Part shown: one piece after another, positions 3,101 to 54,284 of the stretch
How positions within the stretch are numbered: the stretch's first letter is position 1
Layout of the letters: the number at the start of each line of letters is the position of its first letter
Source of the DNA: Octopus vulgaris
Lineage: Eukaryota
DNA length: 64,000 nucleotides
Reading direction: 5' to 3'
NCBI GenBank assembly: GCA_951406725.2
Contig: OX597831.1
Coordinates: forward strand, 43,276,001 to 43,340,000
Position numbers and translations under genes: made by a program
The notes under the pieces: model-generated
What the model was told of the DNA's origin: nothing
The model's database searches: none
What the model saw: only the letters and a program-made list of their open reading frames with translations

Positions 3101-3590
3101 GTTACAGAGGAGCTTTACCGGTTCGAGATAAGCTCTTTAGACATGGGTGTGCACCTTCGCCGGTTTGTGCAAGATGTAAGAGGGACAGTGAAACTGTCCT
3201 GCACGCGATTGTGCAATGCCCCAAGGTGACTGAACTCTGGACTTATGTCGAACACCTGCTGTCGCATTCGAGAAGAGTACAACTGTCGAGCGAATCTGTA
3301 ATTAAGATAGTTCCGCCGACCTTCCTGAATAGAGAGGAGCGAGCCTGTTTTCTTTCGGTAGTTGCTATGGCGAAAGAAGTAGTGTGGAAGACGAGAGTAA
3401 AAGGAATTGCAACAGGCATGTTTATCTCCAGTCTCGAGCTAATCGACTTTTTCATTTTCCACATGAAACGGAAAATAAGGCTGGAGAAGAAATGCCTGTC
3501 GCAAAGTGTGTTTCGTAAAAGATGGAAGTCTATAGCAAGTATGTTGCGAGAGAAAGAACCTATTTAATCGAGAATGTAAAAAAAGATAAA
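190..3590 (+). mobile_element. Tx1/L1-clade non-LTR retrotransposon ORF2 (APE endonuclease, RT, C-terminal CCHC), frameshifted near 635 and 2710
   Basis: Endonuclease motifs CINIRGL, VITES, LLGDFN, SRSYID, SDH; RT motifs KSPGLDG, FRPITLLN, LDQSKAFDRV, VRQGCPLSP, AYADD; zinc knuckle CARC..LHAIVQC, spread over ORFs 289-711, 635-2725 and 2611-3567. Confidence 0.9.
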
Positions 3591-15886: not shown

Positions 15887-16175
15887 ACAGGAAACAGGAA
15901 AGCTGGCAACTATCAAGAGATTGTGGAGGAGCTGCTCCTGAGTTTGCAAGCACTTGGATGTAGAATGCGCATAAACTGCGCTACTTAGACAATCACTCGA
16001 GTGAGTTTCCAGATAACCTGGGTGGTGTTAGCAAAGAACAAGGTGAACACTTTCATCAAGATGTAAAAGTAATGGAAGAACGCTACCAAGGCCAATCGGA
16101 CTCAAACATGATGGCAGATTACCGATCGAGCTTGATGAGAGATATTCCAGAAATTGTACACAAGACCTGAATTCT
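15887..16175 (+). mobile_element. Chapaev3-like transposase C-terminal fragment
   Basis: GNRKAGNYQEIVEELLLSLQALGCRM / FPDNLGGVSKEQGEHFHQDVKVMEERYQG..NMMADY. Confidence 0.65.
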
Positions 16176-19124: not shown

Positions 19125-19274
19125 TCTGATTGACAAGCTGTGTGAGCAATGCCATATATATAGTGGAGAGTAACGCCCCCTTCCCACTGTGACGTCATTA
19201 CCAGAGTTTACGAGGCATTTCGATATTGTTCTACCAGGTGCTACAAGTATTCTGGTAACGTTCCAGATGTTTCC
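19125..19274 (-). promoter_or_regulatory. Hsp70 copy 2 promoter: CRE 19190-19197, TATA, and a disrupted HSE at 19249-19274
   Basis: aTTCt gGTAAc gTTCc aGATg tTTCc: a 1-bp insertion plus GAA>GAT relative to copies 1 and 3. Confidence 0.85.
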
Positions 19275-19804
19275 TTTTAATTCCATTAGCTTATTTTACA
19301 TATAGAAGTGGATTTGTATAGGATATTTGCTCATAATTTGTGTTTTTTAGTAGAACAACTCTGTTTCATGGATGAATATTGCCGTCGTACCAAATAATAA
19401 ACACCGTCGTTCACGTACTGTTGCTATTTATCGCTTCTCGCAACTTTTATCGTTGTTTTGATAAGTTTTCTTGGTTTGAAATATTTTGTGTTGCACAATG
19501 TTTATGTTTTTAGATGGAAGTGCTACTATTTCAAACAAATTCGCATTTTCATTTCAGGACTTTTAAACTATCGACGACTTTAACATTACCATACTCATTA
19601 GAAATGAAAGTCATCATTTAAAGAAAGACGACATTTATGTACATTTGAACATTTATTCCTTGATAAAGAAAGTTTTACAAAGAGTTCGGATACTCATATA
19701 TCGCACAAATCTGTACTCGAAGAAAATATACAGTTAAAATGCAAAGGCGTTTCTATAGTTATTGGTAAAGACTAGCGGCGATGGTTATTGGCATCCAGGG
19801 AGAT

Positions 19805-22064: not shown

Positions 22065-25000
22065 CATCGAATAGTTTCTCACAAATGCACAAGACTCGAA
22101 AATTCCTTCCGAAATAGATGGGTTGAATGCAGTAAATGTGTTTCGATCTGCTTTCAAAGTGCCACAAACTTTCAAAAGATCCCAGGTCAAAAGAAAGGAC
22201 ACCATACTTCTATGATGGACAAACTCTGGGAAATGGTCCAGCTACCAAGCTGGTCGTTTCAGTGCCTGACTTGTGTGTCCCCTGCTACCATTGATGCTGA
22301 ACAGCAACAACAAAATCCGACAACCGTGTCTTCCGCTGTCATTGCTGCTCAACAGCAAAAACTGACTACTTTGTCTCCTCAAACCAGTCCTGTTGATGAA
22401 GAACAACAGCAACAATTAAAGCCGCCCGTGTCTTCCTCCCCTGTCATTCTTCAACATCAGCAAAAAAATCGGCCATTTCTGTTGAAGAACATCAACAAAA
22501 ACAGAAACTTAAGCCGCCTGTGTCTTCCTCCCCTATTGCTCTTCGTCAACAAAAATTGATCATTCCAGTCGAAGTACACCAGCAGGAATAAAAGCCAACC
22601 ATTCCCTCCTCTCCCGATACTTCTCAACTAAAGCAAAAATCGACCATCAGCACAGAAGTTGCGGAAATTTGACAAATGATTTCTGCTTTAAGTCGCGAAA
22701 TAGCAGGAATCAAAACCAGCGTCTGTGCGAAACCTCACAGCGAGGGTTCGTATCAGAGTGCCTTGCTCAGCAACTTACCTGTAGCTCGTACGGAACCTAA
22801 ACGCATCGAGGAAGTTGCTGAATCAACCACTCATGAGGTAATTGCCATCGGATTGCCGGAAGATGTGGTAGATCTGCAGGCTTTCACTGGAAACACCTCT
22901 AAGGACCTCAGCTGTGTTCCTCCAAAAAGTGCTTTCCGCCTTGGCCGACCAGCATCCAAACCCAGACTGATCAGGCTCATGTTTTCAAACTCTACTGAGG
23001 CGCGGGCATACCATCAGGCTGCTGATAGGGCTCGGCGCGAAAACAGAATCACCTTTAAGACATGCCCTGGCCTACCACCTGATGTACGCCCAAAGCTAAG
23101 ATCTGTAGCTTCCCTAAATCGCAACTCTGTGCCACAGGAAAGCTTTAGCCTACGCGATGATGGACAAATATGTAAATTTATCAAGTCTCGTGAGTCGTGG
23201 ATAAGGGATACCAGTTGGACTGAGCAAACTGCACCCACAACAACTACTGGCAATACAAAAACCTTGGGAAATTAACCAAGAACAATCAGCCATCCCTTGT
23301 ATATCATCGCCATCTGAAATCCAGATACAAACTGCTGTCCTTGAATGCTTGTAGTTTATGCAACAAGGTACATCTTTTTGACTCTTACGTCAAAAGTATC
23401 GACCCAGATTTCATCACAGTCACGGAAGCATGGGCACATTTTGCACTCTGTGATGGGGTTTTCAGCGTAACCGGCTACAACCTGTTCCGCAAAGACCGCA
23501 TTAATCGCCGTGGAGGGGGTGGTTTATGTTCGATCAAATCTATTGGCAATCCCTTGTGATGATTTGAACCAATCTCAGCAGGAAGTATTTTTCTGCGATA
23601 TACACATGACCATGTCAACACTTCTGCTTGGAGTTATTTACCGCCCCCCAAATTATCGTCAAGACACACAAGATTTTTATATTCTCAGAGCTGCTGCCAT
23701 GAAAACAGCCACTTATATTTTATATTGCGGGGGACTTCAATTTCCCTGAGATTGACTGGGAGGCTTTCCGTTGGCTGCAAAGTGCAGACGATTTCCTTGA
23801 ACTGGTGCTGAATTCAAATTGGTCCCAATTCGTTACCTCCCCCACAAGGGGTAACAACACTTTGGATCTGCTACTTAATGCTTCTCCTGAAACAATTCTT
23901 AGTGTCACTACTGAAGAACCTTTAGGTGACTCTGATCATTCCATGATCATGGCCGACTTGTCTCTGATTGGTTGTAACAAAAACCACAACCATCTTCAAA
24001 CTGCCCGCTTTGACTGGAATAAAGCAGACTGGAGCTCTTATTGTACTGAGATGCAACGCCCAAACTGACTCGAATTTCATGCCTCTGGAGATGTGAACAC
24101 AATACTTCAGAACATTCTGAATTCAATATGGGCGGCATGTGCAACATCAGTATCACGCAAGGACAAAAAACCACCCAATAGTGCAATTTGGGAAACTGCA
24201 GCAGTCCGACTTGCTAGGAAAGGACGCCGTAATGCTGAACAGGAATACAAATTGCACAACTCAGAGATCAACAGGAAAAAGCGCAATAGATCAGCCAACC
24301 ACCTCAAGCAGGTGACAGAAAATGTAGTGCTTGAATTCGAACAATGCATAGCAACCAACCCTGATAGCAAAGTGTTCTGGAAGTAAGTACACTCAAAGCA
24401 GAGACCTCACTCTCCAGTTGGTTCCCTTCGCAATCCCCACACAGGGCAGATTACTGGCAATCCCAAAGAATGCGCAGAAATCATTGCTGGATGCTATGCA
24501 AGCATCTTTACTGTCGAAGATCAAAATGTTCCATCTCCATCACCTCTGACACCGGACTCTATATCTACAATGAAATTTACACCAGCAATGCTGCGACGCC
24601 ACCTTAGAATAAATGCAATTATGCCTCTCCTGGTTTCGATGGTGTTACATACCTACTTCTCAAACGCAGTGGGTACTTTCTTCTAAACCAACTTTCTATA
24701 TTCTTCCAATTCTATTTTGACAATGGTGTTACTCCAGAGCAGTGGAAAATTGCCAGTGTTATCCCTCTGTTAAAAAAAGGTGACCGCACATCGCCTGTCA
24801 ACTATCGCCCCGTTAGTCTTACTAGCTACATCGCCAAACTGATGGAATCCTGTGTCAGGGAAACCCTCTGGAACTTCTTGAAGTCTTGCAGCCTCATCCA
24901 GCCGTCACAATTTGGATTTATTCCTAACTCCAGCTGCTGTAATCAACTCATCTATTTTCTTGAGGACATTACCCAAATCACTGATCGCGGATCCTGGGTG

Positions 25001-25824
25001 GATGTTGTTTACCTGGACTTTGCTAAGGCTTTTAACTCTGTCCCACACAAAAGACTTATGGTGAAACTCTCTGCGTTGGGTGTAAGAGACGATCTCAATA
25101 ACTGGTTAAAGTCCTTTATTATCGGCCGAAAAGAGGTTGTCACAGTTCTAGGGCAGCACTCTTCACCCTATGAGATGACATCTGGTGTACCACAGGGATC
25201 TGTTCTTGGCCCCCTTTTTTTTGTTGCATATGTTAATGACATAGATGCCAACTTAACGAATGCCACAGTGCTGAAATATGCAGATGACATCAAGCTGTAC
25301 CTCGAAATAAAAGGTCAGATCCTGTACACTATAGATCTCAATTGCAATCAGACCTGGACACAATGCAGCAGTGGATCATGGACTGGCAACTCAAGCTGGC
25401 TGTGAACAAATGTACCACCATGCATTTTGGGAGGAAAAACCCAGCGTCTACTTACTCTCTCCACAACACTAATCTCAAAAAGTTTTCGTGTGAACGCGAC
25501 CTGGGTGTTATTGTCGACAGCGATTTGCGTTGGACAAAACACTTCGCTAAAATTGCCAAGAAGGCTGAGGGTGTCTTGGCATCATTCACCAAGTCCTTTG
25601 TGAGCTGCTCCCCGGCTATCTATCTGCGGCTTTATATAGCTATGGTACGACCTCATCTGGAATTTGCATCACCGGTCTGGAACCCCTATCTTGCCCAGGA
25701 TATTAATCGTCTGGAAGCCGTTCAGCGACGTGCAACCAAGAGAATACCCTCCATCAGGCATTTGACATATTCTGAACGCCTTACTTCCCTGGGCATGGAC
25801 ACACTGAAACTCCGACGTCTGGCA
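22065..25824 (+). mobile_element. Degenerate CR1-clade LINE, segmental duplicate of 12000-15886
   Basis: Same ORF1, EN and RT motifs (NACSLCNK, ITVTEAW, SGVPQGSVLGP, KYADDIK) and the same 3' junction. Confidence 0.9.
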
Positions 25825-26110
25825 ACAGGAAACAGGAAAGCTGGCAACTATCAAGAGATTGTGGAGGAGCTGCTCCTGAGTTTGCAAGCACTTGGATGTA
25901 GAATGCGCATAAACTGCACTACTTAGACAATCACTCGAGTGAGTTTCCAGATAACCTGGGTGGTGTTAGCAAAGAACAAGGTGAACACTTTCATCAAGAT
26001 GTAAAAGTAATGAAAGAACGCTACCAAGGCCGATCGACTCAAACATGATGGCAGATTACCGATCGAGCTTGATGAGAGATATTCCAGAAATTGTACACAA
26101 GACCTGAATT
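25825..26110 (+). mobile_element. Chapaev3-like transposase C-terminal fragment
   Basis: Duplicate of 15887-16175. Confidence 0.65.
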
Positions 26111-26923: not shown

Positions 26924-28831
26924 TTAGTCCATTTCTTCAATCGTTGGACCACTGGACGTTTGCGATGTGCAAGGATTATTGTTAGAAGACGACGATGTGT
27001 GTAGTTTGGACATGATAGGAGAGCAAATTTTCTGTGCTTCCTGAAGTCTGTAGGAAAATTCGTCTGTGTCTGCTAGACTGTTGCTGTCTATCCACTGTAA
27101 TGTTTGGTCACACATTTCCACTGCTTGCTTCTTATCTTGCTCGGACAGTTTGCCGTTATCTTCATTGAGTGCTTGTTTCACACTGAATATGTAATGCTCC
27201 AACTGGTTTCTAGCTGCAACACGTTGGCGTTGCTTTTCGTCTTCTGCCTCGTATTGTTTAGCTTCGTTGAGCATTCTTTCGATTTCCTCTTTGCTCAAAC
27301 GACCTTTGTCGTTGGTGATGGTAATTTTGTTGCTTTTGCCGGTGCTTTTGTCGACAGCAGAAACGTTGAGTATTCCATTGGCATCCATATCGAAGGAGAC
27401 TTCTATTTGAGGTACGCCTCTGGGAGCTGGTGGAATGCCAGTCAAGTCGAAACGTCCGAGGCAGTTGTTGTCTTTTGTCATTGCTCTTTCTCCTTCGAAT
27501 ACCTGAATAGAAACAGCCGGCTGGTTATCTGAATACGTAGTGAATACATTGGATGCCGTACACGGTATTCTGCTGTTACGCTCGATAAGTTTGGTCATCA
27601 CACCACCAGCCGTTTCGATTCCAAGAGATAACGGTGCTACATCTACAAGTAGTACGTCTCTGATGCAATCGCTCGCGTCTCCAGACAGAACAGCAGCTTG
27701 TACGGCAGCTCCGTAGGCGACAGCTTCGTCTGGGTTGATGGATTTGTTGACGGTCTTTCCTTGCATGAAGTCGGCTAGTAATTTCTGGATCTTGGGAATG
27801 CGTGTCGATCCACCGACCAACACGATGTCGTCGATGCGGGATTTATCGAGTTTGGCGTCTCGCAGAGCTTTCTCAACTGGTTCCAGAGTCGATCGGAAGA
27901 GGTCACTGCAAAGATCCTCGAAGCGTGCTCTGGTAATCTTCGAGTAAAAATCAATGCCTTCATACAGAGAATCCAGCTCTACTGAAGCTTCTGAACTGCT
28001 CGATAGGGTTCGTTTTGCCCGTTCACATGCAGTACGCAGACGTCTGATAGAGCGTGGGCTTTGTTTCAGATCTTTCTTGTGTTTACGCTTGAATTCTTCG
28101 ACAAAGTAGTCAACGAGCCGGTTGTCGAAGTCTTCTCCTCCGAGATGTGTGTCGCCAGCTGTAGCTTTCACCTCGAAAAGAGATCCTTGGTCGATTGTGA
28201 GGATGGAAACATCGAATGTACCACCGCCCAAGTCGAAGATCAGAACGTTCTTCTCACCAGATAAGTTTTTCTCGAGACCGTAGGCGAGTGCGGCGGCCGT
28301 TGGTTCGTTGACAATTCTCAACACATTCAAACCAGCTATACTAGCTGCATCTTTCGTCGCCTGTCTCTGAGAGTCGTTAAAGTAAGCTGGCACCGTTACT
28401 ACTGCGTCTTTCACTTTACAGCCCAGGTACGACTCGGCTGTCTCCTTCATTTTACTCAATACCATCGAGCTAATCTCTTCGGCTGAGAACTGCTTTTGCT
28501 CTCCCTTGTACTCCACTTGTACATGTGCTTTATTACCGTTTGTGTTCACCACTCGGAATGGCCAATATTTCATGTCGCTTTGTACGGACGTATCGTTAAA
28601 GTGACGTCCAATTAAACGTTTAGCATCGAACACCGTGTTCTCAGGGTTGAGGGCCGCTTGGTTTTTCGCTGCATCACCCACCAGCCTTTCGGCATCGGTG
28701 AAAGCCACATAGCTTGGTGTTGTCCTGTTTCCCTGATCGTTGGCAATAATTTCCACTTTACCGTGTTGAAACACACCTACACAAGAATAGGTTGTTCCCA
28801 GATCGATTCCGATAGCAGGTGCTTTGACCAT
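26924..28831 (-). CDS. hsp70: Inducible-type cytosolic Hsp70, copy 3 (635 aa, ends EEMD)
   Basis: Intact ORF with all Hsp70 signatures. Confidence 0.98.
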
Positions 28832-34757: not shown

Positions 34758-35096
34758 AAAAACCTGCCATTTCTAGCAAGTGCAGTGATATTCGCGTCGT
34801 CGCCCTGTTACGAGTTCGTAAATGAATTGCGAATTTGTTATTATTGTTGCATTTCCGTCTTAAAACATAAACATTGTGCAACACAAAATATTTCAAACCA
34901 AGAACACTATCAAAACAAAAATAAAAGTTGCGACAAGCGATAAATGGCAACAGTACGTGAACGACGGTGTTTATTGTTTGGTACGACGGCAATATTCATC
35001 CATGAAACAGAGTTGTTCTACTAAAAAACACAAATTATGAGCAAATATCCTATACAAATCCACTTCTATAAGTAAAATAAGCTAATGGAATTAAAT

Positions 35097-35246
35097 GGAA
35101 ACTTCTGGAACGTTCCAAAGACTTGTAGCACCTGGTAGAACAATATCGAAATGCCTCGTAAACTCTGGTGATGACGTCACAGTGGGAAGGGGGCGTAACT
35201 CTCCACTATATATACAGCATTGCCCACACAGCTTGTCAATCAGATT
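35097..35246 (+). promoter_or_regulatory. Hsp70 copy 4 promoter: 4-unit HSE 35097-35116, CRE 35172-35179, TATA 35207-35214, Inr-like TCAGATT 35240-35246
   Basis: Direct motif reading. Confidence 0.88.
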
Positions 35247-35468
35247 CTATAGAAGCACGACTGTAAACAACTCAAGAGTCTCGGCTGCGAAACATTTCTT
35301 TCAGCTATACATACATTGAAGCAACACTCATTCACATATAATACATTTATATATTCTACTGACAAAACTGAAATACAAAGTAAGACGAGCAAGAGATAAA
35401 GAAGAAAGAAAGAATTTCTCAAGTTTTATACTGGACATTTTGAGCGAACAATAGAAAAAGAAAGAAGA

Positions 35469-37340
35469 ATGGTAAAAGCACCTGCTATCGGAATCGATCT
35501 GGGAACAACCTATTCTTGTGTAGGTGTGTTTCAACACGGTAAAGTGGAAATTATTGCCAACGATCAGGGAAACAGGACAACACCAAGCTATGTGGCTTTC
35601 ACCGATGCCGAAAGGCTGGTGGGTGATGCAGCGAAAAACCAAGCGGCCCTCAACCCTGAGAACACGGTGTTCGATGCTAAACGTTTAATTGGACGTCACT
35701 TTAACGATACGTCCGTACAAAGCGACATGAAATATTGGCCATTCCGAGTGGTGAACACAAACGGTAATAAAGCACATGTACAAGTGGAGTACAAGGGAGA
35801 GCAAAAGCAGTTCTCAGCCGAAGAGATTAGCTCGATGGTATTGAGTAAAATGAAGGAGACAGCCGAGTCGTACCTGGGCTGTAAAGTGAAAGACGCAGTA
35901 GTAACGGTGCCAGCTTACTTTAACGACTCTCAGAGACAGGCGACGAAAGATGCAGCTAGTATAGCTGGTTTGAATGTGTTGAGAATTGTCAACGAACCAA
36001 CGGCCGCCGCACTCGCCTACGGTCTCGAGAAAAACTTATCTGGTGAGAAGAACGTTCTGATCTTCGACTTGGGCGGTGGTACATTCGATGTTTCCATCCT
36101 CACAATCGACCAAGGATCTCTTTTCGAGGTGAAAGCTACAGCTGGCGACACACATCTCGGAGGAGAAGACTTCGACAACCGGCTCGTTGACTACTTTGTC
36201 GAAGAATTCAAGCGTAAACACAAGAAAGATCTGAAACAAAGCCCACGCTCTATCAGACGTCTGCGTACTGCATGTGAACGTGCAAAACGAACCCTATCGA
36301 GCAGTTCAGAAGCTTCAGTAGAGCTGGATTCTCTGTATGAAGGCATTGATTTTTACTCGAAGATTACCAGAGCACGCTTCGAGGATCTTTGCAATGACCT
36401 CTTCCGATCGACTCTAGAACCAGTTGAGAAAGCTCTGCGAGACGCCAAACTCGATAAATCCCGCATCGACGACATCGTGTTGGTCGGTGGATCGACACGC
36501 ATTCCCAAGATCCAGAAATTACTTGCCGACTTCATGCAAGGAAAGACCGTCAACAAATCCATCAACCCAGACGAAGCTGTCGCCTACGGAGCTGCCGTAC
36601 AAGCTGCTGTTCTGTCTGGAGACGCGAGCGATTGCATCAGAGACGTACTACTTGTAGATGTAGCACCGTTATCTCTTGGAATCGAAACGGCTGGTGGTGT
36701 GATGACCAAACTTATCGAGCGTAACAGCAGAATACCGTGTAAGGCATCCAACGTATTCACTACGTATTCAGATAACCAGCCGGCTGTTTCTATTCAGGTA
36801 TTCGAAGGAGAAAGAGCAATGACAAAAGACAACAACTGCCTCGGACGTTTCGACTTGACTGGCATTCCACCAGCTCCCAGAGGCGTGCCTCAAATAGAAG
36901 TCTCCTTCGATATGGATGCCAATGGAATACTCAACGTTACTGCTGTCGACAAAAGCACCGGCAAAAGCAACAAAATTACCATCACCAACGACAAAGGTCG
37001 TTTGAGCAAAGAGGAAATCGAAAGAATGCTCAACGAAGCTAAACAATACGAGGCAGAAGACGAAAAGCAACGCCAACGTGTTGCAGCTAGAAACCAGTTG
37101 GAGCATTACATATTCAGTGTGAAACAAGCAGTCAATGAAGATAACGGCAAACTGTCCGAGCAAGATAAGAAGCAAGCAGTGGAAACGTGTGACCAAACAT
37201 TACAGTGGATAGACAACAACAGTCTAGCAGACACAGACGAATTTACCTACAGACTTCAGGAAGCACAGAAAATTTGCTCTCCTATCATGTCCAAACTACA
37301 CACATCGTCGTCTTCTAACAATAATCATTGCACATCATAA
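35469..37340 (+). CDS. hsp70: Hsp70 copy 4, 623 aa, premature TAA removes the last 12 residues including EEMD
   Basis: TAA at 37338-37340 where intact copies have CAA; vestigial in-frame tail ANSGAALKEMD* to 37376. Confidence 0.92.
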
Positions 37341-38561
37341 GCGAACAGTGGTGCAGCGCTTAAAGAAATGGACTAATATCTTATTCATTCATACAAAAAT
37401 TTGATGAAATACTGTGATATATCTATTACTCAGTACTCTTTTCATACTACATCACTTTATGTGATTTTAAAAATTATTCTCACTCATATCAGCTCAATGA
37501 CATTGTGAACATTCATCATTTATTCATCCATCCTATTGACATTTTGTAAAACAAGCTTTAAAATCTTTTGTATATTTTTGTAGATGAATATAATTGATAT
37601 TTTCTTTCACAAGAGTGTCGTTGTTATTTTATATTCGTTTATTGTTTGTTTCGTATGAAATATTACTCGTATGTTTATGCATGCTATTCCTTGTTGTTTT
37701 GTTGCAAGTTTCCTATTAACAATCATCAGGTAGTTTCTACAGTAAACAGAGGAAGCGTAAGAGCGAAAGGTGAAGTACCTAATGGCGCATTAGTGAACGA
37801 TACCATGGAAGCCTCTAATTTTCATAGATTATTGACAAATGTCATTCGATAACCGTCTCTTAACAATTAATTTATTCAACCGAGGAGTTCCGTTAAAGAA
37901 ACTAAATTTCATATAAATAGCCTAATAACATTATACGTGATTAGAATAAGCGGCTTTCACTGTATTTCTTTCACTCAGTTACAAGAATATGTAGTGGATT
38001 CGATGCACCATAGCCAAATGGATAGTTATAAAAGCAAGCACACCACAAGCAAAAATCAGTCGGTGACGACGAAGTCTGACTGACCAGCTAGAACCTTTGT
38101 CAGAGGGAGAAATGAAGTTTACGGTCAGCAACGTCACACATCCTACAATTCTCACTAATTCTCACTAATTCTGTTTTCTTACAACATCATTCTATCTCTC
38201 TCTGTAATTACTACTAAACAATGAAGAGGACACAAACACAAACTTTACTTCCCATTGTTTTTTGATGCATCAAAATCTGCCCGTCGAGGCAAGTTATTGT
38301 AACGTAACGGTAAATAAGTATTTCCTTAAAACTTCATGCATTGTCAATCTTTCACATCTTATTACTAGCCGTTATAAGAAAGAATTTTTATCCTTACAAA
38401 TATAAGTGAGAAATATACCAAAACGATGCAGATATCTTTCCTAAGTGGAAATAACAGCTTCAAATTCACGATTTTTATCGTAGAAAACTATTGATTTTGT
38501 AAACAGTAATATCTTACAATTAGTTTGATCTTCAGCGTTGTCAACAAAAATATTTTTGAAA

Positions 38562-38924
38562 TGATGGTTTATGCCAACTTAATGTGGCAGTCCCAGGAAA
38601 AGAAACAATGCTACTGCTATTAATCCCCAGGAAATACCGTTTCCAGATGGCTATGTTACACAAGTGTTCTGTTTTCAAAGGCGATTATGCATCAACGGCT
38701 AGCAAGCCAAGCTAATCCAGACAGATGACGAGCAATGACTCTGAAACTAGTCTCTGATTGCTGGCTTTACTGGGTGGACGAGCTTATCTCCCCTGTTTGA
38801 AAACTTAAAGACACAGAACGCTTATGTCACATAGCCAATTGAAAACAGTGTTTCCTGGGGCTAAATAGCAGTAGCATTCTTTCCTTTCCTGGCACTGCTA
38901 CATTAAGTTAGCAACAAACCATCA
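38562..38924. mobile_element. MITE-like element with about 75-bp imperfect TIRs
   Basis: TGATGGTTT..GC.AACTTAATGT.GCAGT.CCAGGAAA...AATGCTACTGCTATT...CCCCAGGAAA at both ends in inverted orientation; the homologous site near 6320 is empty. Confidence 0.7.
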
Positions 38925-39423
38925 CTTTATCTTCCTACTACTGTATAAGTGTCTCCAAGAGATTTTGAAATGCAATATTTCTATCTTTGAAATGAAATAT
39001 AGCTAATCATATCTTTGTACATGAAGATTCTCGGTCATCATTTCACTATGGACATATCTTACTCTTAATAAATACGGTGAAATGTCTTACGACTACGTAA
39101 GGTCTCTGGCTATGCTCATTATATTGATCAACAGGTGAGGGACAGCACATGTTACGACACCTATTCACGAAGTGGTTTAGTGAAGCTGCAGACGGCCCTT
39201 GATATATCGGAATCGTTGAAAGACATCGAATCATTTACCGCTGTAAACTCAACGCATTTCCACACCTAACACATCGACTCTAACCACATAAACTCTACCA
39301 TCAATAAACTTTGTTCCGTAATATATGCAAACGCACCGCCTTAGTCATCATCCTACTACAGCAATCAACGTTATCATTTTGTCCCACGAACGTCTAGCAA
39401 TTGTGTTCCCTCTCCCACGCCTA

Positions 39424-39899
39424 TGTAGTGACGCTATCCAACAGCGCGTGCGCGCAACGCTCTTTCGCGCATACGCGAAGACCGTAAGAGGGAATTTGCT
39501 GATGTGGCGTTAGCTGATTAGGCGAAGGGAGCGTGAACCTTAAAAAGACAGAGAGAGATATAGCAGCAGTCAGCAGTAAGCAGGGACTTCAGGCACAGCG
39601 ATCGAAGGTTGCAGACCGTATTTCTCTTCGCTCCCTAGGACGCCATTATGACCAGTTCTGTTTGCAGTTGAACTTGTGAAATCTTACAGCGTTAAAGTTC
39701 AGCCTTGCACATCCAGAACCAAGGGATACCAGATACACCACTTATTTCGTTCTGTGGATAAGACGATAAAGAGTATATATATTTTTACGTTTGCGTCTTG
39801 TGTTTTCTGACTGGTAGAATCTGGAAAGTAAAGCAACGGAAATTGTGATTGCACCAGTTGCACCCTAAAAGGTGCAAGAAGCAACCTATTCCCGTTACA
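39424..39899. mobile_element. Solo LTR (476 bp, TG...CA, 4-bp TSD CCTA; Gypsy-like)
   Basis: CCTA|TGTAGTG...CGTTACA|CCTA; empty site ACG-CCTA-TATATCT at 43421-43434. Confidence 0.85.
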
Positions 39900-40379
39900 C
39901 CTATATATCTCACACAAAAGCTTTTCCCACTGTTTCCATATACATCTCTTACAGCGAAATCGTTTCTGAATGCCTCTAGTGGATTTCCATGCTCTAGTTA
40001 CCGGTCGTATCGCATCAGATATACATGACACCAGAAAAAACTTTTCATCTAATTCAAGCGTAGACCATGCAAAATGCTGGCTCATTAAATTCCAAGTCTG
40101 TTCATATTTTCAACTTCGGCCCCGTGAGGTTTGTGTGCCCTCCCAGATTCTTTCTGGATTTTTTTCACTACATTGCATTTCAACCACCATATCCTCCGTC
40201 ACATCGCTGAAGTTTCCCTGAACCATCTCGCCACCGATAAGATTTTCTAGTCTTGCTTTTGAGTTCGTGACACGCTATAGGGTTAACTAACTGTACAAAT
40301 ACTTCCCCGTGAAAAAAAGAACCACTTTGTTATGCAAATATTTTCCTTTGAAATTCCATAGAACTTTCAGAATTTAGAT

Positions 40380-40650
40380 CTTGTGTACAGCTTTTGGAAT
40401 ATCTCTCATCAAGCTCCATCAGTAATCTGCCATCATGTTTGAGTCGATCGCCCTTGGTAGCGTTTTTCCATTACTTTTACATCTTGATGAAAGTGTTCAC
40501 CTTGTTCTTTGCTAACACCACCCAAGTTGTCTGGAAACTCACTCGAGTGATTGTCTACGTAAGGCAGTTTATGCGCATTCTACATCCAAGTGCTTGCAAA
40601 CTCAGGAGCAGCTCATCCACAATCACTTAATATTTGCCAGCTTTCGGTTT
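40380..40650 (-). mobile_element. Chapaev3-like C-terminal fragment (inverted homolog of 15887-16175)
   Basis: Reverse-complement match; further copies at about 44075-44355 and 54760-55030. Confidence 0.6.
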
Positions 40651-40795
40651 CTAAGAAAATTCCGCACCAAATGAGAGACAGCATTCCAAGACATTGTAGA
40701 ACTTTAGAAGGGCTAAAATGACACATTCGATCACAGCACCGATAACAGTTAAATCTCGTGCAATGTCCATACTAGATAACGAGGGGGCAGCCATC

Positions 40796-41905
40796 ATGTA
40801 TGTATGTATGTATGTATGTATGTATGTATGTATGTATGTATGTATGTATGTATGTATGTATGTATGTATGTGTGTAGGCATATATGTATGTATGTATGTA
40901 TGTGTGTATGCATGCAAGCATTTAGGTAGGCATGTATGTATATAATTATAAATGGGCATTCCTATATATATGTGCAAACATCGAAACTGTTTCCATATAA
41001 CTTCCAGAAAAAGTGATGTTTCTTGATGAAATGTTCTACAAATACGCTCCAGATGATGTACATTCCTATTATGAAAGAATTTCTTTTCAAACCATTCTCA
41101 GTTGCTGGGAAGAAGTGCTTCGGAAAATTCACTCCGGTTGGCTTTGTTGTCTTACGACTGTCAGAAAATTTGGAATAATCTAATGAAATTTTCTGTAAAC
41201 AGTTTTAAGAATGAGTAACTTACGATTATTTTAGAATTTGATGTGAAAGAAATGAAAAAAAATTTAATTCACGCGTATACTGGCATTTTTTCCCCCGAAA
41301 TTTCATGTTTCATTATGTAGATACATGTGATGTGTGTTAGTACGTGTGTTCATGAGTCTGCCAAATTTATTTTTTCATGTAGAATCCGGTAGAAACGACT
41401 TTTTTCTATGACAGGACCTTTTCCGAACCTCTTCACCCAAAACACGCAAAAAAACTCCCTATACGATATTTTGTTATGATCAGAGTGTACAACTACCCGA
41501 AGCATATTTGAAGAAAATTTCATTTAAAAATATCCATTTTCTGGAAGTTATGATGCAACAAAGTTGGTGGCGGAGGCATGTGCGGTAATACATACGTATG
41601 TATGTATGTATGTATGTATGTATGTATGTATGTATGTATGTATGTATGTATGTATATGTATGTATGTATGTATGTATGTGCATGTATGTATGTATGTATG
41701 TATGTATGTATGTATGTATGTATGTATGCATGCATGCATGCATGTTTGTTTGTATGTATGTATGTATGTATGTATGTATGTATGTATGTATGTATGTATG
41801 TACGTACGTATGTATTTGTATGGGTTCGTATGTATGTATATATGTTTATATGTGTATATGTATGTATGTATGTATATGTATGTACATACCCATGTATGTA
41901 TACAT
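40796..41905. repeat. (TATG)n compound microsatellites (40796-40915, 41596-41905); paralogous tracts at 44500-44760, 45455-45900, 46600-46935, 55178-55310, 55994-56270
   Basis: Direct reading. Confidence 0.9.
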
Positions 41906-41950
41906 GCAATCATGTAGATAATCAGGTATTTACGCAAGTATATATATATA

Positions 41951-43175
41951 GTGTAATAAATAAAATATATGCATACATACAAACATATATGTACGTACCT
42001 ACATCTACATGTATATATACATGCATATATAAATATATATACGTGTGTACAGGACACCACAAATAGACGTAGAACTCAACGAGAAACGAAAAAGTAAAAA
42101 CAGCATGGAACGGACCATTTTTTTAACAACGAAAAAACAGAGTACAAGACAACTACACAAGGAAAAATCCCCTTCATCAGCTGTCCCTAGTTCGACTCTA
42201 GCGTGTTTCGAAATTGAGGACAGAACACGTCCCGTCGAATTAATCCTTCCTGCGAAAGAATTAAATAAAATTCCTTTGCAGAGGGGTAAAAACAACGTGT
42301 TCTGTCCTCACCTTCGAAACACGCTGGAGTTGAACTAGGGACAGCTGATGAAGGGGATTTTTCCTTATGTAGTTGTCTTGTACTCTGTTTTATCGTTGTT
42401 AAAAAAATGGTCCGTTCCATGCTGTTTTTACTTTTTCGTTTCTCGTTGAGTTCTACGTCTATTTGTGGTGTCCTATACACACGTATATATATATTTATAT
42501 ATGCATGTATATATACATGTAGATGTAGGTACGTACATATATGTTTGTATGTATGCATATATTTTATTTATTACGCTATTGTATGACTGAGCGCCCTCGC
42601 GTCGATTCGATCCGATTCGTTTCGTTTCTTCTTCTTCTCTAAGCTGGTTTTTATATATAATTATGACGCGAAACTCTATAACTCCTTCTTTCACCCTCTT
42701 TGGCTTCCTTCCTCTCTATCTCTCTCTCTCTCACAGTCGGGTCGACGAACTTCCTTTCGCTGGCGGCCTTCTTCAAGTAAACATGATTCTTCCTGCGCTC
42801 GTGAAAAAATTTTTTCGTCGTCTAGGCTTATAGGCCCTCATTATTTGTTTTCCTGTCCTGTTTCTATTCCTTCTTGTACTGTATTTTTGTAATTGTATTT
42901 TTATTTTGTATTTGTTTTTAATTGTATTGTTTATACGTCCTGTTTTTGTCACATTTTTTTCCTTGTTTTTACCCCTCTGCAAAGGAATTTTATTTAATTC
43001 TTTCGCAGGAAGGACTAGGTCGACGGGACGTGTTCTGTCCTCACCTTCGAAACACGCTGGAGTTGAACTAGGGACAGCTGATGAAGGGGATTTTTCCTTG
43101 TGTAGTTGACTTGTACTCTGTGTTTTCGTTGTTAAAAAAATGGTCCGTTCCATGGTGTTTTTACTTTTTCGTTTC
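41951..43175 (+). mobile_element. Non-autonomous Penelope-like/retrozyme-like element with fold-back 5' end, truncated copy
   Basis: Inverted arms 41951-42230 and 42295-42576; direct repeat with period 733; CTGATGA and GAAAC cores; inserted in (TA)n. Confidence 0.65.
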
Positions 43176-46908: not shown

Positions 46909-49477
46909 TTGTATATGTATGTACATACCCATGTATGTATACATGCAATCATGTAGGTAGTCAGGTATTTACGCAAGTATATATATATATATATATGGGC
47001 TTTGCCACATACGTGTGCATCCATTGAATCTGAAGTGAACCTTGCATGCATGAAGTGGATTCGATCCACCACAGCCAAATTTAAAATAACACTGCAACAG
47101 AACTTTTTCCAGGATGGAACAATGGTTTTCCTCTGACAGCAGTTTTACATTTCCAGATGCCTTTAGCTAGACCGAAATAATGTCTTCACTACTTGTCTCT
47201 TTCTAACCTCTTCTACTTCACCAAAAGCTAGAATAAGAGATAACAAGACTACCAACTAAATCTACTGTTCTCAATGATATATCTGGCCTTCTGGATCTTT
47301 ATATAAGCAAACACACCCCAAGCAATAATCAGTTAGTCACCAGTCGGTGACAAACTCAGTCAGAACGTAGTCTGGCTGACCAGCTAAAACCTTGGTCAGA
47401 GGGAGAAATGAAGTTCACTGTCAGCAACATCACACACCCGACAATTCTCACTAGCTCTAATTCTGTTTTCTTACAACATCATTCTATCTGTCTCCGCAAT
47501 TACTACTAAACAATGAAGAGGACACAAACACAAACTTTACATCGCATGCTTTTGGATTTATCATAAACTGCCCTTCGCGGCAAGGTATTTGTAACGTAAC
47601 GGTAAATAAATATTTCCTTAAAATTTCATGAATTGTCTATCTTTCACATCCTACAGTAAACAATTATAACAACAAAAACTTTATCGCTACAACTGCGGAC
47701 TCCCACATCATCTTAATAACGTTGTTTACCAAATATATTTATCCAGTTACAATTGGTAACCACACCAAAGTAAAATTCAACCGTTACAAATCCATTACCA
47801 TTTAGTTGCCAGAAAAAGTGATATTTCTTATTGCAATTTTCTACAAATACGCCTCAGATGATGTATATTGTAATGATGATGGAATTTCTTGAGAAACCTT
47901 TTGTCTGTCGGTAGGAAGAAGTGCTTCGGAAAATACACACGTGTTGGTTTTGTTTTCTCATAACTTTCAGAAAAACTGGAATTTTTCAATGAAATTTTCT
48001 GCAAATACTTTTAACAGTGTGTAAATTACGATTATATTAGAATTTGATGTGGAAAAAAATTGAGAGCACACCCATATACTGGCACACATCTTTTTTTTTC
48101 TCTTGAAATTTCAGGTTTCATTATGAAGACGTAAGTGACGTGTGTCAGTACTTGTGTTTATGGACCTACCAAATTTATTTTCTCATGTTAATATCCGGTA
48201 TAATCGCAATCTACAAACTCCAAAATATATCTATAGAACCTTTCTTACAAAATTACTTATTTCCCTGACAGTTAAGAATTCAGAAATCCGCCTCGTTTGA
48301 ATTTTCCGAAACACATCCACCCAACTCTGGCAAAGAAAATCTTTCACTATACAATATTTCGGTATCATCAGAACCTACATCTGAAGCATATTTGTAGAAA
48401 ATTTATGCGATATATGTGTATCCGAACTCTATGTAAAACATTCTTTATCAAAGAATAAATATTCAAATGTATCATTCCTTCTTTGAAGACAACAAATGAT
48501 GGCTTCCGGCAGCTTTTGACTGCTATTTCTAGCGAGTATGGTGATGTTCACGTCGTCGATAGTTTAAAAGTCCCGAAATGAAAATGCGAATTTGTTTGTT
48601 CTAGTTGTAATTCCGGCAAAAAACATAAACAGAGTGCAACACAAAATATTTCAAACCGAGGAAACTATGAGAGCAAAAATAAAAGTTGTTAGAAGCGATA
48701 TACTAAATGGTAAGAGAACGTGAAAGGTGGTGTTCATTATTTCGTATGAGAGCAATATTCATTCATCAATCACAGCTACACATGTACGTCTAACTTATTC
48801 AATGATATTAGAAAGCAAACATAGTAAACGTGGATGTGAAAATAAATACAAATCTTTGATTATTCGTTTCATTCCGAGTTACAAGCACTACATTCTGACT
48901 CTCATCATCAGGAACGAATTGAAAGCAGCTATACTTCCCTGGGTAACCAGCGACGCTATTCTTAACCAATTACTATAGAAATGCATTTGCTTTTTCTATG
49001 TGTATTTTGTTCGAGGACACACTTGTGCGTTATATGACAATCTGAACCCATTGTGAAAAATTTTGTATCAAGGTATAAATATTCAAATGTGACATTTCTT
49101 TGTTTAAAGCCAAAACAAAACTTTCGGCAAATTTTGACTGCCGTTTCTAGCAAGTGCAGTGATATTCGCGTCGTCGCCCTTTTTATGAGATCGTAAATGA
49201 ATTGCGAATTTGTGGCTATTGTTGCATTTCAGTCTTAAAACATAAATATTGTGCAACACAAAATATTTCAAACCAAGAAAACTATCAAAACAACGATAAA
49301 AGTTGCGAGAAGCGATATACGATGACGGGAAAAGAACGTGAACGACGGTGTTTATTATTTGGTACGACGGCAATATTCATCCATGAAACAGAGTTGTTCT
49401 ACTAAAGAACACAAATTATGAGCAAATATCATATACAAATCCACTTCTATATGTAAAATAAGCTAATGGAATTAAAA

Positions 49478-49630
49478 GGAAACTTCTGGAACGTTCCAGA
49501 AACTTGTGGCACCTGGTAGAACAATATCGAAATGCCTCGTAAACTCTGGTAATGACGTCACAGTGGGAAGGGGCGTTACTCTCCACTATATATACAGCAT
49601 TGCTCACACAGCTTGTCAATCAGATTCTAC
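49478..49630 (+). promoter_or_regulatory. Hsp70 copy 5 promoter: 5-unit HSE 49478-49502, CRE 49553-49560, TATA 49587-49594
   Basis: gGAAa cTTCt gGAAc gTTCc aGAAa. Confidence 0.9.
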
Positions 49631-49852
49631 AGAAGCACGACTGTAAACAACTCGAGACAAGAGTCTCAGCTGCGAAACATTTATTTCAGTTATACATACA
49701 TTGAAGCAACACTCATTCACATATAATACATTCATATATTCTACTGACACAACTGAAATACAAAGTAAGACGAGCAAGAGATAAAGAAGAAGGAAAGAAT
49801 TTCTCAAGTTTTATACTGGACATTTTGAACGAACAATAGAAAAAGAAGAAGA

Positions 49853-51724
49853 ATGGTAAAAGCACCTGCTATCGGAATCGATCTGGGAACAACCTATTCT
49901 TGTGTAGGTGTGTTTCAACACGGTAAAGTGGAAATTATTGCCAACGATCAGGGAAACAGGACAACACCAAGCTATGTGGCTTTCTCCAATGCCGAAAGGC
50001 TGGTGGGTGATGCAGCGAAAAACCAAGCGGCCCTCAACCCTGAGAACACGGTGTTCGATGCTAAACGTTTAATTGGACGTCACTTTAACGATACGTCCGT
50101 ACAAAGCGACATGAAATATTGGCCATTCCGAGTGGTGAACACAAACGGTAATAAAGCACATGTACAAGTGGAGTACAAGGGAGAGCAAAAACAGTTCTCG
50201 GCCGAAGAGATTAGCTCGATGGTATTGAGTAAAATGAAGGAGACAGCCGAGTCGTACTTGGGCTGTAAAGTGAAAGACGCAGTAGTAACGGTGCCAGCTT
50301 ACTTTAACGACTCTCAGAGACAGGCGACGAAAGATGCAGCTAGTATAGCTGGTTTGAATGTGTTGAGAATTGTCAACGAACCAACGGCCGCCGCACTTGC
50401 CTACGGTCTCGAGAAAAACTTATCTGGTGAGAAGAACGTTCTGATCTTCGACTTGGGCGGTGGTACATTCGATGTTTCCATCCTCACAATCGACCAAGGA
50501 TCTCTTTTCGAGGTGAAAGCTACAGCTGGCGACACACATCTCGGAGGAGAAGACTTCGACAACCGGCTCGTTGACTACTTTGTCGAAGGAATTCAAGCGT
50601 AAACACAAGAAAATCTGAAACAAAGCCCACGCTCTATCAGACGTCTGCGTACTGCATGTGAACGGGCAAAACGAACCCTATCAAGCAGTTCAGAAGCTTC
50701 TGTAGAGCTGGATTCTCTGTATGAAGGCATTGATTTTTACTCGAAGATTACCAGAGCACGCTTCGAGGATCTTTGCAGTGACCTCTTCCGATCGACTCTA
50801 GAACCAGTTGAGAAAGCTCTGCGAGACGCCAAACTCGATAAATCCCGCATCGACGACATCGTGTTGGTCGGTGGATCGACACGCATTCCCAAGATCCAGA
50901 AATTACTTGCCGACTTCATGCAAGGAAAGACCATCAACAAATCCATCAACCCAGACGAAGCTGTCGCCTACGGAGCTGCCGTACAAGCTGCTGTTCTGTC
51001 TGGAGACGCGAGCGATTGCATCAAAGACGTACTACTTGTAGATGTAGCACCGTTATCTCTTGGAATCGAAACGGCTGGTGGTGTGATGACCAAACTTATC
51101 GAGCGTAACAGCAGAATACCGTGTAAGGCATCTAACGTATTCACTACGTATTCAGATAACCAGCCGGCTGTTTCTATTCAGGTATTCGAAGGAGAAAGAG
51201 CAATGACAAAAGACAACAACTGCCTCGGACGTTTCGACTTGACTGGCATTCCACCAGCTCCCAGAGGCGTACCTCAAATAGAAGTCTCCTTCGATATGGA
51301 TGCCAATGGAATACTCAACGTTTCTGTTGTCGACAAAAGCACCGGCAAAAGCAACAAAATTACCATCACCAACGACAAAGGTCGTTTGAGCAAAGAGGAA
51401 ATCGAAAGAATGCTCAACGAAGCTAAACAATACGAGGCAGAAGACGAAAAGCAACGCCAACGTGTTGCAGCTAGAAACCAGTTGGAGCATTACATATTCA
51501 GTGTGAAACAAGCAGTCAATGAAGATAACGGCAAACTGTCCGAGCAAGATAAGAAGCAAGCAGTGGAAATGTGTGACCAAACATTACAGTGGATAGACAA
51601 CAACAGTCTAGCAGACACAGACGAATTTACCTACAGACTTCAGGAAGCACAGAAAATTTGCTCTCCTATCATGTCCAAACTACACACATCGTCGTCTTCT
51701 AACAATAATCATTGCACATCATAA
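49853..51724 (+). pseudogene. hsp70: Hsp70 copy 5 with a compensating +1/-1 indel pair creating a stop at 50600-50602 (pseudogene or sequence error); also EEMD-less
   Basis: GAAGGAATTC versus GAAGAATTC (extra G near 50589) and AAGAAAATCTG versus AAGAAAAATCTG (near 50612); total span 1872 bp, equal to copies 4 and 6. Confidence 0.75.
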
Positions 51725-52946
51725 GCGAACAGTGGTGCAGCGCTTAAAGAAATGGACTAATATCTTATTCATTCATACAAAAATTTGATGAAATACTGTG
51801 ATATATCTATTACTCAGTACTCTTTTCATACTACATCACTTTATGTGATTTTAAAAATTATTCTCACTCATATCAGCTCAATGACATTGTGAACATTCAT
51901 CATTTATTCATCCATCCTATTGACATTTTGTAAAACAAGCTTTAAAATCTTTTGTATATTTTTGTAGATGAATATAATTGATATTTTCTTTCACAAGAGT
52001 GTCGTTGTTATTTTATATTCGTTTATTGTTTGTTTCGTATGAAATATTACTCGTATGTTTATGCATGCTATTCCTTGTTGTTTTGTTGCAAGTTTCCTAT
52101 TAACAATCATCAGGTAGTTTCTACAGTAAACAGAGGAAGCGTAAGAGCGAAAGGTGAAGTACCTAATGGCGCATTAGTGAACGATACCATGGAAGCCTCT
52201 AATTTTCATAGATTATTGACAAATGTCATTCGATAACCGTCTCTTAACAATTAATTTATTCAACCGAGGAGTTCCGTTAAAGAAACTAAATTTCATATAA
52301 ATAGCCTAATAACATTATACGTGATTAGAAGAAGCGGCTTTCACTGTATTTCTTTCACTCAGTTACAAGAATATGTAGTGGATTCGATGCACCATAGCCA
52401 AATGGATAGTTATAAAAGCAAGCACACCACAAGCAAAAATCAGTCGGTGACAACGAAGTCTTACTTACCAGCTAGAACCTTTGTCAGAGGGAGAAATGAA
52501 GTTTACGGTCAGCAACGTCACACATCCTACAATTCTCACTAATTCTCACTAATTCTGTTTTCTTACAACATCATTCTATCTCTCTCTGTAATTACTACTA
52601 AACAATGAAGAGGACACAAACACAAACTTTACTTCCCATTGTTTTTTGATGCATCAAAATCTGCCCGTCGAGGCAAGTTATTGTAACGTAACGGTAAATA
52701 AGTATTTCCTTAAAACTTCATGCATTGTCAATCTTTCACATCTTATTACTAGCCGTTATAAGAAAGAATTTTTATCCTTACAAATATAAGTGAGAAATAT
52801 ACCAAAACGATGCAGATATCTTTCCTAAGTGGAAATAACAGCTTCAAATTCACGATTTTTATCGTAGAAAACTATTGATTTTGTAAACAGTAATATCTTA
52901 CAATTAGTTTGATCTTCAGCGTTGTCAACAAAAATATTTTTTGAAA

Positions 52947-53309
52947 TGATGGTTTATGCCAACTTAATGTGGCAGTCCCAGGAAAAGGAACAATGCTACT
53001 GCTATTAATCCCCAGGAAATACCGTTTCCAGATGGCTATGTTACACAAGTGTTCTGTTTTCAAAGGCGATTATGCATCAACGGCTAGCAAGCCAAGCTAA
53101 TCCAGACAGATGACGAGCAATGACTCTGAAACTAGTCTCTGATTGCTGGCTTTACTGGGTGGACGAGCTTATCTCCCCTGTTTGAAAACTTAAAGACACA
53201 GAACGCTTATGTCACATAGCCAATTGAAAACAGTGTTTCCTGGGGCTAAATAGCAGTAGCATTCTTTCCTTTCCTGGCACTGCTACATTAAGTTAGCAAC
53301 AAACCATCA
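52947..53309. mobile_element. MITE-like element, duplicate of 38562-38924
   Basis: Near-identical sequence. Confidence 0.7.
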
Positions 53310-53808
53310 CTTTATCTTCCTACTACTGTATAAGTGTCTCCGAGAGATTTTGAAATGCAATATTTCTATCTTTGAAATGAAATATAGCTAATCATATCTT
53401 TGTACATGAAGATTCTCGGTCATCATTTCACTATGGACATATCTTACTCTTAATAAATACGGTGAAATGTCTTACGACTACGTAAGGTCTCTGGCTATGC
53501 TCATTATATTGATCAACAGGTGAGGGACAGCACATGTTACGACACCTATTCACGAAGTGGTTTAGTGAAGCTGCAGACGGCCCTTGATATATCGGAATCG
53601 TTGAAAGACATCGAATCATTTACCGCTGTAAACTCAACGCATTTCCACACCTAACACATCGACTCTAACCACATAAACTCTACCATCAATAAACTTTGTT
53701 CCGTAATATATGCAAACGCACCGCCTTAGTCATCATCCTACTACAGCAATCAACGTTATCATTTTGTCCCACGAACGTCTAGCAATTGTGTTCCCTCTCC
53801 CACGCCTA

Positions 53809-54284
53809 TGTAGTGACGCTATCCAACAGCGCGTGCGCGCAACGCTCTTTCGCGCATACGCGAAGACCGTAAGAGGGAATTTGCTGATGTGGCGTTAGCT
53901 GATTAGGCGAAGGGAGCGTGAACCTTAAAAAGACAGAGAGAGATATAGCAGCAGTCAGCAGTAAGCAGGGACTTCAGGCACAGCGATCGAAGGTTGCAGA
54001 CCGTATTTCTCTTCGCTCCCTAGGACGCCATTATGACCAGTTCTGTTTGCTGTTGAACTTGTGAAATCATACAGCGTTAAAGTTCAGCCTTGCACATCCA
54101 GAACCAAGGGATACCAGATACACCACTTATTTCGTTCTGTGGATAAGACAATAAAGAGTATATATATTTTTACGTTTGCGTCTTGTGTTTTCTGACTGGT
54201 AGAATCTGGAAAGTAAAGCAACGGAAATTGTGATTGCACCAGTTGCACCCTAAAAGGTGCAAGAAGCAACCTATTCCCGTTACA
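53809..54284. mobile_element. Solo LTR, duplicate of 39424-39899 with the same CCTA TSD
   Basis: Same termini and flanks. Confidence 0.85.

Follow-up and report, generated by a model that had tools for sequence, protein, structure and literature searches.

A shared premature stop codon removes the EEMD end of three of eight clustered Hsp70 genes in Octopus vulgaris

The window analysed here is a 64,000-nucleotide stretch of the 2.8-Gb Octopus vulgaris genome (GenBank assembly GCA_951406725.2, contig OX597831.1, positions 43,276,001 to 43,340,000; G000:C18:43276001-43340000 in our own numbering), in which six Hsp70 genes were found, each made of a single open reading frame (ORF). Three of these lie on the minus strand (copy 1, 7083–8990; copy 2, 16989–18896; copy 3, 26924–28831) and encode intact proteins of 635 amino acids that end in GPTIEEMD. 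The other three lie on the plus strand (copy 4, 35469–37340; copy 5, 49853–51724; copy 6, 60556–62427) and carry a premature stop. A protein search of the whole genome gave 40 matches out of 46 candidates, eight of them full-length, 97–100% identical and all located in this one cluster. The two copies thereby added, 7 and 8, lie on the plus strand past the right edge of the window (C18:43347262–43349169, locus L021, and C18:43362122–43364029, locus L024) and are both intact, with 635 amino acids and the same GPTIEEMD end. Overall the cluster comprises five intact and three truncated copies, and the plus strand carries three truncated copies out of five. The initial annotation of the window had proposed that truncation follows the strand, a pattern that proves to be an effect of where the window ends.

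The truncation was traced to codon 624, which is CAA in copies 1, 2, 3, 7 and 8, TAA in copies 4 (37338–37340, plus strand) and 5 (51722–51724), and TAG in copy 6 (62425–62427); for the six copies in the window these codons had been read correctly before. The truncated products end at residue 623 instead of 635, with a loss of 12 residues (…IEEMD), and the EE(V/M)D end motif is absent from copies 4–6 and present in the other five of the eight. The dead tail of copy 4 (37341–37376, plus strand), now part of the 3′ untranslated region (UTR), reads ANSGAALKEMD, retains the old TAA at 37374–37376, and has seven differences after the stop from the nearest intact tail, that of copy 8. None of the dead tails contains an insertion or deletion (indel), and copies 4 and 5 both retain GAA ATG GAC TAA. 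Pairs of one truncated and one intact copy differ at 8–12 of the last 51 bases and at 10–29 of the first 1857, in keeping with the earlier description of a strongly diverged tail behind gene bodies that differ at scattered sites. The tail sequences given in that description were also right, except that the tail of copy 6 had been made to end at KEMD: its old stop is TCA (62461–62463) and the dead tail runs past this point. A copy-6-like contig of sequencing run X7 retains the old TAA together with a copy-4-like UTR, and is either polymorphic or recombinant.

Copy 5, previously counted as a 623-residue gene, is interrupted in this assembly, as an additional base and a missing one, 22 bases from each other near 50588–50614, place a stop between them at codon 250 (50600–50602). 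Both changes alter single-letter runs, and copy 5 carries three single-base indels in total, of a kind that long-read consensus can produce, so that an assembly error is possible. No frame-destroying lesion was found in the folded domains of copies 4 and 6. The new C-terminal ends of copies 4 and 6, and of the O. sinensis protein P0013 described below, read NHCTS or NHCSS at residue 623; by eye, these fit none of the CaaX, PTS1 or PDZ-type targeting signals.

Given the repetitive nature of the region and the three indels of copy 5, the stop at codon 624 might itself have been an error of assembly or an allele private to the sequenced animal. Two different stop codons with linked tail changes speak against such an origin, as does O. 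sinensis P0013, a protein of 623 amino acids with the same final residue, which stands beside an intact 635-residue protein, P0009. Contigs, rather than raw reads, were also inspected for seven of the 24 sequencing runs listed (X1, X7, X8, X17, X12, X13 and X14), which represent seven study codes and four organism labels, and T at 37338 was present in a contig of all seven. In the stop-type contigs of X12, X13 and X14 one difference each could not be placed, so that the second or third base of codon 624 may have changed there; the table for X1, X7, X8 and X17 was complete. Together, the O. sinensis protein and the seven runs rule out an artefact or private allele, to which we attach a negligible residual probability, and the recent private origin that would have undone the initial annotation is set aside with it.

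The more distant octopod proteins P0010–P0012 (93–94% identical) and the Argonauta proteins P0057 and P0068 are all intact and end in EEMD, from which it follows that EEMD is ancestral and the stop derived; these sequences say nothing on whether truncated copies are absent from those animals. A search for shorter octopod fragments ending at residue 623 gave 19 matches out of 68 candidates, none of them close except the copy-5 fragment of the window itself, and the matches named in the homologue and fragment searches included no O. bimaculoides protein. As Asn46 and Leu296 are present in copies 7 and 8 and also in the intact P0009 of O. sinensis, some copy-specific variants are older than the species split. 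It can safely be said that the stop predates the separation of O. vulgaris and O. sinensis, for which our literature search found no usable date. At the rate of 0.0036 changes per site per million years given in PMC13282606, the 3–6 later changes in 33 bases would amount to tens of millions of years, with very wide error. The number of later changes varies: the stop-type tail of X12 (organism B) has the first three only, those of X13, X14 and X17 have more, and copy 4 has six, so that the tail either changed stepwise or was partly overwritten in organism B.

The three truncations go back to one mutation that was then duplicated. In a tree of bases 1860–2450, copies 4–6 formed a single clade with 100/100 support, which excludes three independent truncations. 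In trees of the body (bases 1–1800) and of the 600 bases upstream, both weakly supported, copies 4–6 were grouped in none of 200 bootstrap trees each. An 8.4-kb segment carrying copy 4 (34764–43175, plus strand) was found by self-comparison with BLAST to be repeated around copy 5 (49138–57548) with 98.1% identity, and the region 5′ of copy 5 has its counterpart 5′ of copy 7, with 96.5% identity over 5.8 kb. This sharing of segments would fit duplication and unequal crossing-over among direct repeats, which in turn would account for three truncated copies that are adjacent and on the same strand.

The bodies of the two classes have been mixed and the tail has not, as first proposed for the window and as both the trees and the divergence profile bear out. 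The two classes diverge by a mean of about 0.01 in the body, which rises to 0.22 across the 39-base tail and drops back to 0.03–0.10 over the next 390 bases. No class-specific fixed site was found in 1869 coding bases, and the body tree leaves the truncated copies ungrouped; with neither fixed body sites nor a body clade they are no separate diverged protein lineage, unlike plant T1/T2 or yeast Ssb. Among the intact copies themselves divergence climbs in the 3′ direction, from 0.006–0.011 in the body to 0.038–0.051 in the last 108 bases and 0.06–0.12 in the UTR, and the truncated copies are alike across the whole 3′ segment (0–0.07). Copy 2 has an intact-type tail followed by a UTR that differs by 0.034–0.039 from copies 4–6 and by 0.068–0.078 from copies 3 and 7, with a flank at only 0.000–0.017 from copy 3. 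Its UTR is best explained as a tract received from a truncated copy and beginning right after the tail, and tracts moving in this direction would also best explain the low divergence of the UTR between classes. As such a tract would have entered an intact copy immediately next to the tail, selection is needed only on the intact copy.

We then considered whether the truncated copies are expressed. The labelling of runs X1, X7, X8 and X17 as RNA is a guess of the program used, no listed run being recorded as RNA. Stop-type contigs were present in all four, so that the truncated plus-strand copies are very probably not the untranscribed genes that would have contradicted the initial annotation. 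Their depth over the tail was 189 of a total of 1424 in X1, 704 of 3550 in X8 and 1272 of 3903 in X17, and in X7 the stop-type contig was the only one, at 5.3; the values for X12, X13 and X14 were 11.3 of 39.6, 23.4 of 53.3 and 467 of 589. Contig depth is a poor measure of expression and gives no copy number. Past 37620, the depth of X17 drops from 529 to 5.4, whereas X12–X14 continue, and two X17 contigs stop at 37609, which backs the RNA label of this run. A likely variant poly(A) signal, AATATA (37587–37592), lies about 17 bases before this likely transcript end near 37609. The X7 contig, 2379 bases long with four copy-6 letters including TAG, ends at 37608 in agreement with the same poly(A) site, which backs the label of X7; if colinear, it would start about 28 bases past the start of the copy-6 TATA box, an extrapolation from 281 bases compared. 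Based on these observations, full-length transcription of stop-type copies, alongside intact ones, is very likely. In X7, a low-depth run (window positions 37240–37520 compared), the single cluster contig is of the TAG type at depth 5, a hint from one contig that basal expression may come mainly from a truncated copy. In X14, a probable DNA run from organism D (37280–37401), stop-type depth was 467 against 122 for the intact type, and organism D may have more truncated copies.

The promoters show no division by class. Upstream of copy 4, three overlapping GAAnnTTC/TTCnnGAA units form a heat-shock-element array (35098–35120, plus strand), followed by a TATA box at 35207–35212. Copies 1–8 have 4, 0, 4, 3, 4, 2, 2 and 2 perfect units, and all eight have TATATA at −262 to −267. 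With 3, 4 and 2 units in the truncated copies against 4, 0, 4, 2 and 2 in the intact ones, promoter state is independent of tail class. The earlier statement that all promoters are intact fails at copy 2, which has no perfect unit and, though intact in its coding part, the weakest promoter, with one substitution and a 2-base insertion relative to the other copies at about 19250–19275 (minus strand). Overall the copies are intronless, with heat-shock elements in seven of eight and a TATA box, features of the HSP70 B2 type.

Cephalopods edit their RNA heavily, and a stop of this kind could be partly bypassed by A-to-I editing (TAG or TAA to TGG) or by readthrough, giving a switchable tail that ends in KEMD. 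The absence of indels from the tail, the retained GAA ATG GAC TAA of copies 4 and 5, the G that directly follows the TAG of copy 6 and the stop-loss editing described in a fungus (PMC13123824) would all suit such a bypass. We nevertheless consider it very improbable. The contigs of the four probable RNA runs, in which rare variants are dropped, showed no other letter at 37339, and the G of X7 at 37340 is the genomic letter of copy 6, linked to three more copy-6 letters. Each of the five to six changes that follow the stop in copy 4 alters a residue, P to A and E to K included, and the ratio of amino-acid-changing to silent differences per site (pN/pS) in the tail is 1.5 between the classes compared with 0.12 among intact tails, on tiny counts. 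Lastly, the old stop is lost from copy 6 in the assembly, though retained in the X7 contig, and no long hairpin covers the premature stop, the longest helix having 10 pairs.

The likely properties of the shortened protein were assessed by comparison with human Hsp70s. Residues 1–613 of copy 4 align in one stretch to HSPA1A (PDB 7kw7_C, 1041 bits; Pfam PF00012 is listed), with the nucleotide-binding domain, the substrate-binding domain and the lid whole; only the end of the flexible tail is lost. Under the operational definition of Hsp70T, a cytosolic-type Hsp70 without the C-terminal EEVD-type motif, copies 4 and 6 and O. sinensis P0013 belong to this kind. In human Hsp72, loss of EEVD is reported to uncouple the protein from DnaJB4 and CHIP, to lower basal ATPase activity (4.6 compared with 10.9) and nearly to abolish DnaJB4-dependent refolding, in line with the co-chaperone role assigned to this end in the initial annotation (PMC8913300). 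The same source describes an I637A tail mutant that works normally with DnaJA2, and CHIP binding for which the terminal carboxylate and positions P1, P2 and P5 matter most (PMC8913300). The octopus genome has a CHIP-domain match on C5. By analogy, the expected product would be a chaperone that binds clients and cooperates with class A J-proteins but has no access to TPR partners or class B J-proteins. In a wider set of 53 non-octopod homologues, the last Asp was lost by substitution in eight (end F, Y or N) and the motif in one more; these altered proteins (P0027, P0032, P0034, P0037, P0040, P0058, P0059, P0061 and P0067) include four from Periplaneta americana with EEVF or EEIF, others with EEVY or EEVN, and one from Tegillarca in which the motif is lost. 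Relaxation of the tail may be common in duplicated inducible-type Hsp70s, to judge from these sequences.

Such a product need not be made or matter, and the truncated copies might be transcribed passengers on their way to becoming pseudogenes, with a protein that is absent, unstable or without effect and with bodies kept clean through conversion alone. The frameshift of copy 5 would fit this, as would the older, heavily deleted family copy on C1 described below and the lowered ATPase and abolished class B refolding of the human protein without EEVD (PMC8913300). Open 623-residue frames with all domains in copies 4 and 6 and in the O. sinensis protein point the other way, and changes from the majority codon are amino-acid-changing and silent in the proportion 16:16 in truncated copies and 22:24 in intact ones (Fisher P 1.0). 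In single-ORF genes with a stop only 36 bases before the old one, junction-based decay of the transcript is unexpected, which further weakens the passenger explanation, and on balance we find it unlikely. The pN/pS of the body is 0.33 among truncated and 0.27 among intact copies; purifying selection, or conversion from intact copies, would each give such low values.

The remaining question is whether selection holds a tail-less class beside the intact one, any exchange that restores the tail being removed. A stress Hsp70 barred from hand-over to HOP and CHIP could hold its clients longer or escape CHIP-driven turnover. This proposal draws on the sharp divergence peak at the stop within otherwise mixed genes, and divergence peaks are a described sign of selection resisting conversion (PMC3924837). 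It would also agree with retention of the stop in O. sinensis and in sequencing runs that carry four organism labels, the depth of 189–1272 in probable RNA runs, the heat-shock elements retained in truncated copies and the body pN/pS given above. A clam with 11 HSPa B2 genes, of which five have EEVD, and with EEVD in three of its eight zinc-induced copies, offers a parallel (PMC10939072). To judge the peak, 114 informative sites between −600 and +2450 were scanned for linkage, with the classes defined by a site inside the tail stretch itself; at least four perfectly linked sites in 39 bases occurred at −557 to −537, at −525 to −514, in the tail and in two stretches past +2300. Under a rough neutral coalescent null (eight copies, full linkage over 36 bases, 20,000 trees), the probability of at least three extra changes on the stem was 0.05, 0.19, 0.33 and 0.40 at background divergences of 0.023, 0.05, 0.08 and 0.10, and that of at least four was 0.017, 0.10, 0.22 and 0.29. 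Four extra sites were observed, or three events if TC>AA is counted once, and the local background is near 0.05–0.10; by this rough test the peak is not clearly above neutral expectation. Furthermore the stop has a single origin only, low body pN/pS can be inherited through conversion from intact copies, one of the three truncated copies is frameshifted in the assembly, and neither class-specific fixed sites in 1869 body bases nor a class-specific promoter change was found. That selection maintains the class is consequently a tentative proposal. It is likewise possible, though doubtful, that the common-octopus group has kept a tail-less Hsp70 twin by selection for millions of years, with conversion holding both classes to one protein as far as residue 623 and barred at one codon. 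Were this true, a single cluster would supply the stressed cell with two products, a foldase coupled to co-chaperones and an uncoupled holder proof against CHIP, in a ratio set by copy number.

Taken together, the tail loss is real, of single origin, shared across species and apparently transcribed, and it affects three of eight inducible-type copies. The explanation that we favour, with a probability of roughly 0.55, is that a redundant array tolerates the loss and that the product is likely a chaperone no longer coupled to HOP, CHIP and class B J-proteins. One C-to-T change created the stop at codon 624 in what is now an eight-gene cluster, and tandem duplication likely spread it, with one 3′ end, to three adjacent copies, the plus-strand run of three arising from duplication among direct repeats. 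The stop likely persists as tolerated beside five intact copies. The 623-residue chaperone, with both domains and the lid and without the EEMD end, would still be able to bind clients and, with class A J-proteins, to go through its ATP cycle, would fail with HOP, CHIP and class B J-proteins, and would add partial chaperone dosage under stress. Exchange between copies would be strong in the coding body and fade toward its 3′ end, tracts carrying the stop into an intact copy would be purged by selection, and the stop, so far not overwritten, would leave a freed tail to decay stepwise. The tail, at 0.22, is no more diverged than the far 3′ flank (0.18–0.24), and no speed-up is required; this match, with the likeness of the truncated copies across the 3′ segment, makes the tail the start of the unconverted end.

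Several observations weigh against a merely tolerated loss. The stop has persisted over four organism labels, and 3–6 changes have since accumulated in 33 bases. The truncated copies are not silenced, as stop-type contigs make up 13% (X1), 20% (X8) and 33% (X17) of tail depth and are the only kind in X7. A repaired copy, with an intact codon 624 and a truncated-type 3′ end, was not found among the eight. The tail is the only cluster of linked sites inside the transcript, the others lying in flanks. There are also two hints of exchange halting at the stop: copies 6 and 1 have a base in common six bases 5′ of it, and the X12 stop-type contig has intact-type letters from 37356 onward; both can be ancestral states or repeat mutations as well.

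Drosophila hsp70 is another intronless, stress-inducible cluster under gene conversion. The octopus cluster resembles mammalian HSPA1A/1B (PMC5865164) and molluscan and other invertebrate HSP70 B2-type genes (PMC8423806) as described in these sources, in its tandem and inverted single-ORF copies with heat-shock elements, and such intronless inducible clusters likewise have bodies about 99% identical and more divergent UTRs; conversion between Hsp70 paralogues is reported in mammals, nematodes and molluscs (PMC8423806; PMC5865164). Molluscan cytosolic Hsp70s are described as ending in GP(T/K)(V/I)EE(V/M)D (PMC11268181), and the Argonauta hians copies end in TVEEMD. The octopus differs from these clusters in that three of eight copies carry a common, motif-removing stop that has not been homogenised away. 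In the blood clam Tegillarca granosa, another mollusc with motif-bearing and motif-less inducible-type genes side by side, five of eight stress-induced HSPa B2 copies are given as lacking EEVD; that loss may be a stop, drift, a gene-model error or an EEMD-type variant (PMC10939072), whereas in the octopus it is one base change between copies 98–99% identical, common to two species. Plant Hsp70T proteins (T1 lineage, tandem clusters) and yeast Ssb1/2 are also cytosolic, without EEVD and, in plants, tandemly expanded, and lost hand-over to Hsp90 and the proteasome has been proposed for them (PMC10687569). These lineages are old and diverged, lid deletions are frequent in them, and Ssb has a ribosome role of its own (PMC10687569); the octopus truncated copies are only 12 residues off their intact partners, and sequence exchange with those partners continues. 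Engineered human Hsp72 without EEVD has the same functional lesion and predicts no CHIP or DnaJB4 binding and a lower basal ATPase (PMC8913300), but the octopus case is natural and removes 12 residues rather than four from a parent tail that ends in EEMD. Primate red and green opsins also show a small island of fixed differences in homogenised duplicates (PMC3924837); the octopus island lies where the conversion zone ends, in a stretch that has been released from coding, and decay and a one-way barrier can explain it. By these analogies the octopus copies most likely behave like EEVD-less Hsp70s, a known kind, outside the plant and yeast lineages. No paper on an octopus tail-less Hsp70 was found in the open-licence literature.

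Among the other genome matches are two Hsc70-type genes on C17, with introns and an IEEVD end, and two long single-ORF genes of the Hsp70 superfamily (C9:88940163–88941785 and C1:76538332–76539936; 32–34% identity, open frames of 830 and 848 amino acids), which we presume are probably of the Hsp110 type. At C1:49541697–49542245 (L009, L019) lies an old, decayed and internally deleted fragment of the same Hsp70 family, 82–85% identical, whose tail reads LATSGPTIKGMS and has two letters in common with the stop-type tail, the first base of codon 626 and AAA at codon 632. The spacers of the cluster contain pieces of reverse-transcriptase-like ORFs (LINE-type by eye) and a repeated 199-residue ORF (635–3567, 15425–15988, 24842–25926, 12613–13212 and 22676–23275), duplicated together with the 10-kb units of copies 1–3. 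Just 3′ of copy 4, at about 37990–38150, there is a high-copy short repeat with a depth in the thousands in DNA-type runs.

The role of the EEVD tail in living animals is known mostly from engineered mutants. The octopus cluster offers natural and apparently co-expressed proteins that differ almost only by their last 12 residues, and a single base tags each class in RNA reads, so that the cost or benefit of uncoupling from HOP, CHIP and class B J-proteins becomes directly measurable. [quoted passage not shown] If it does not, a major stress gene can shed the tail from as many as three of eight copies at little cost, and octopus Hsp70 expression, when used as a stress marker, would lump together two kinds of transcript.

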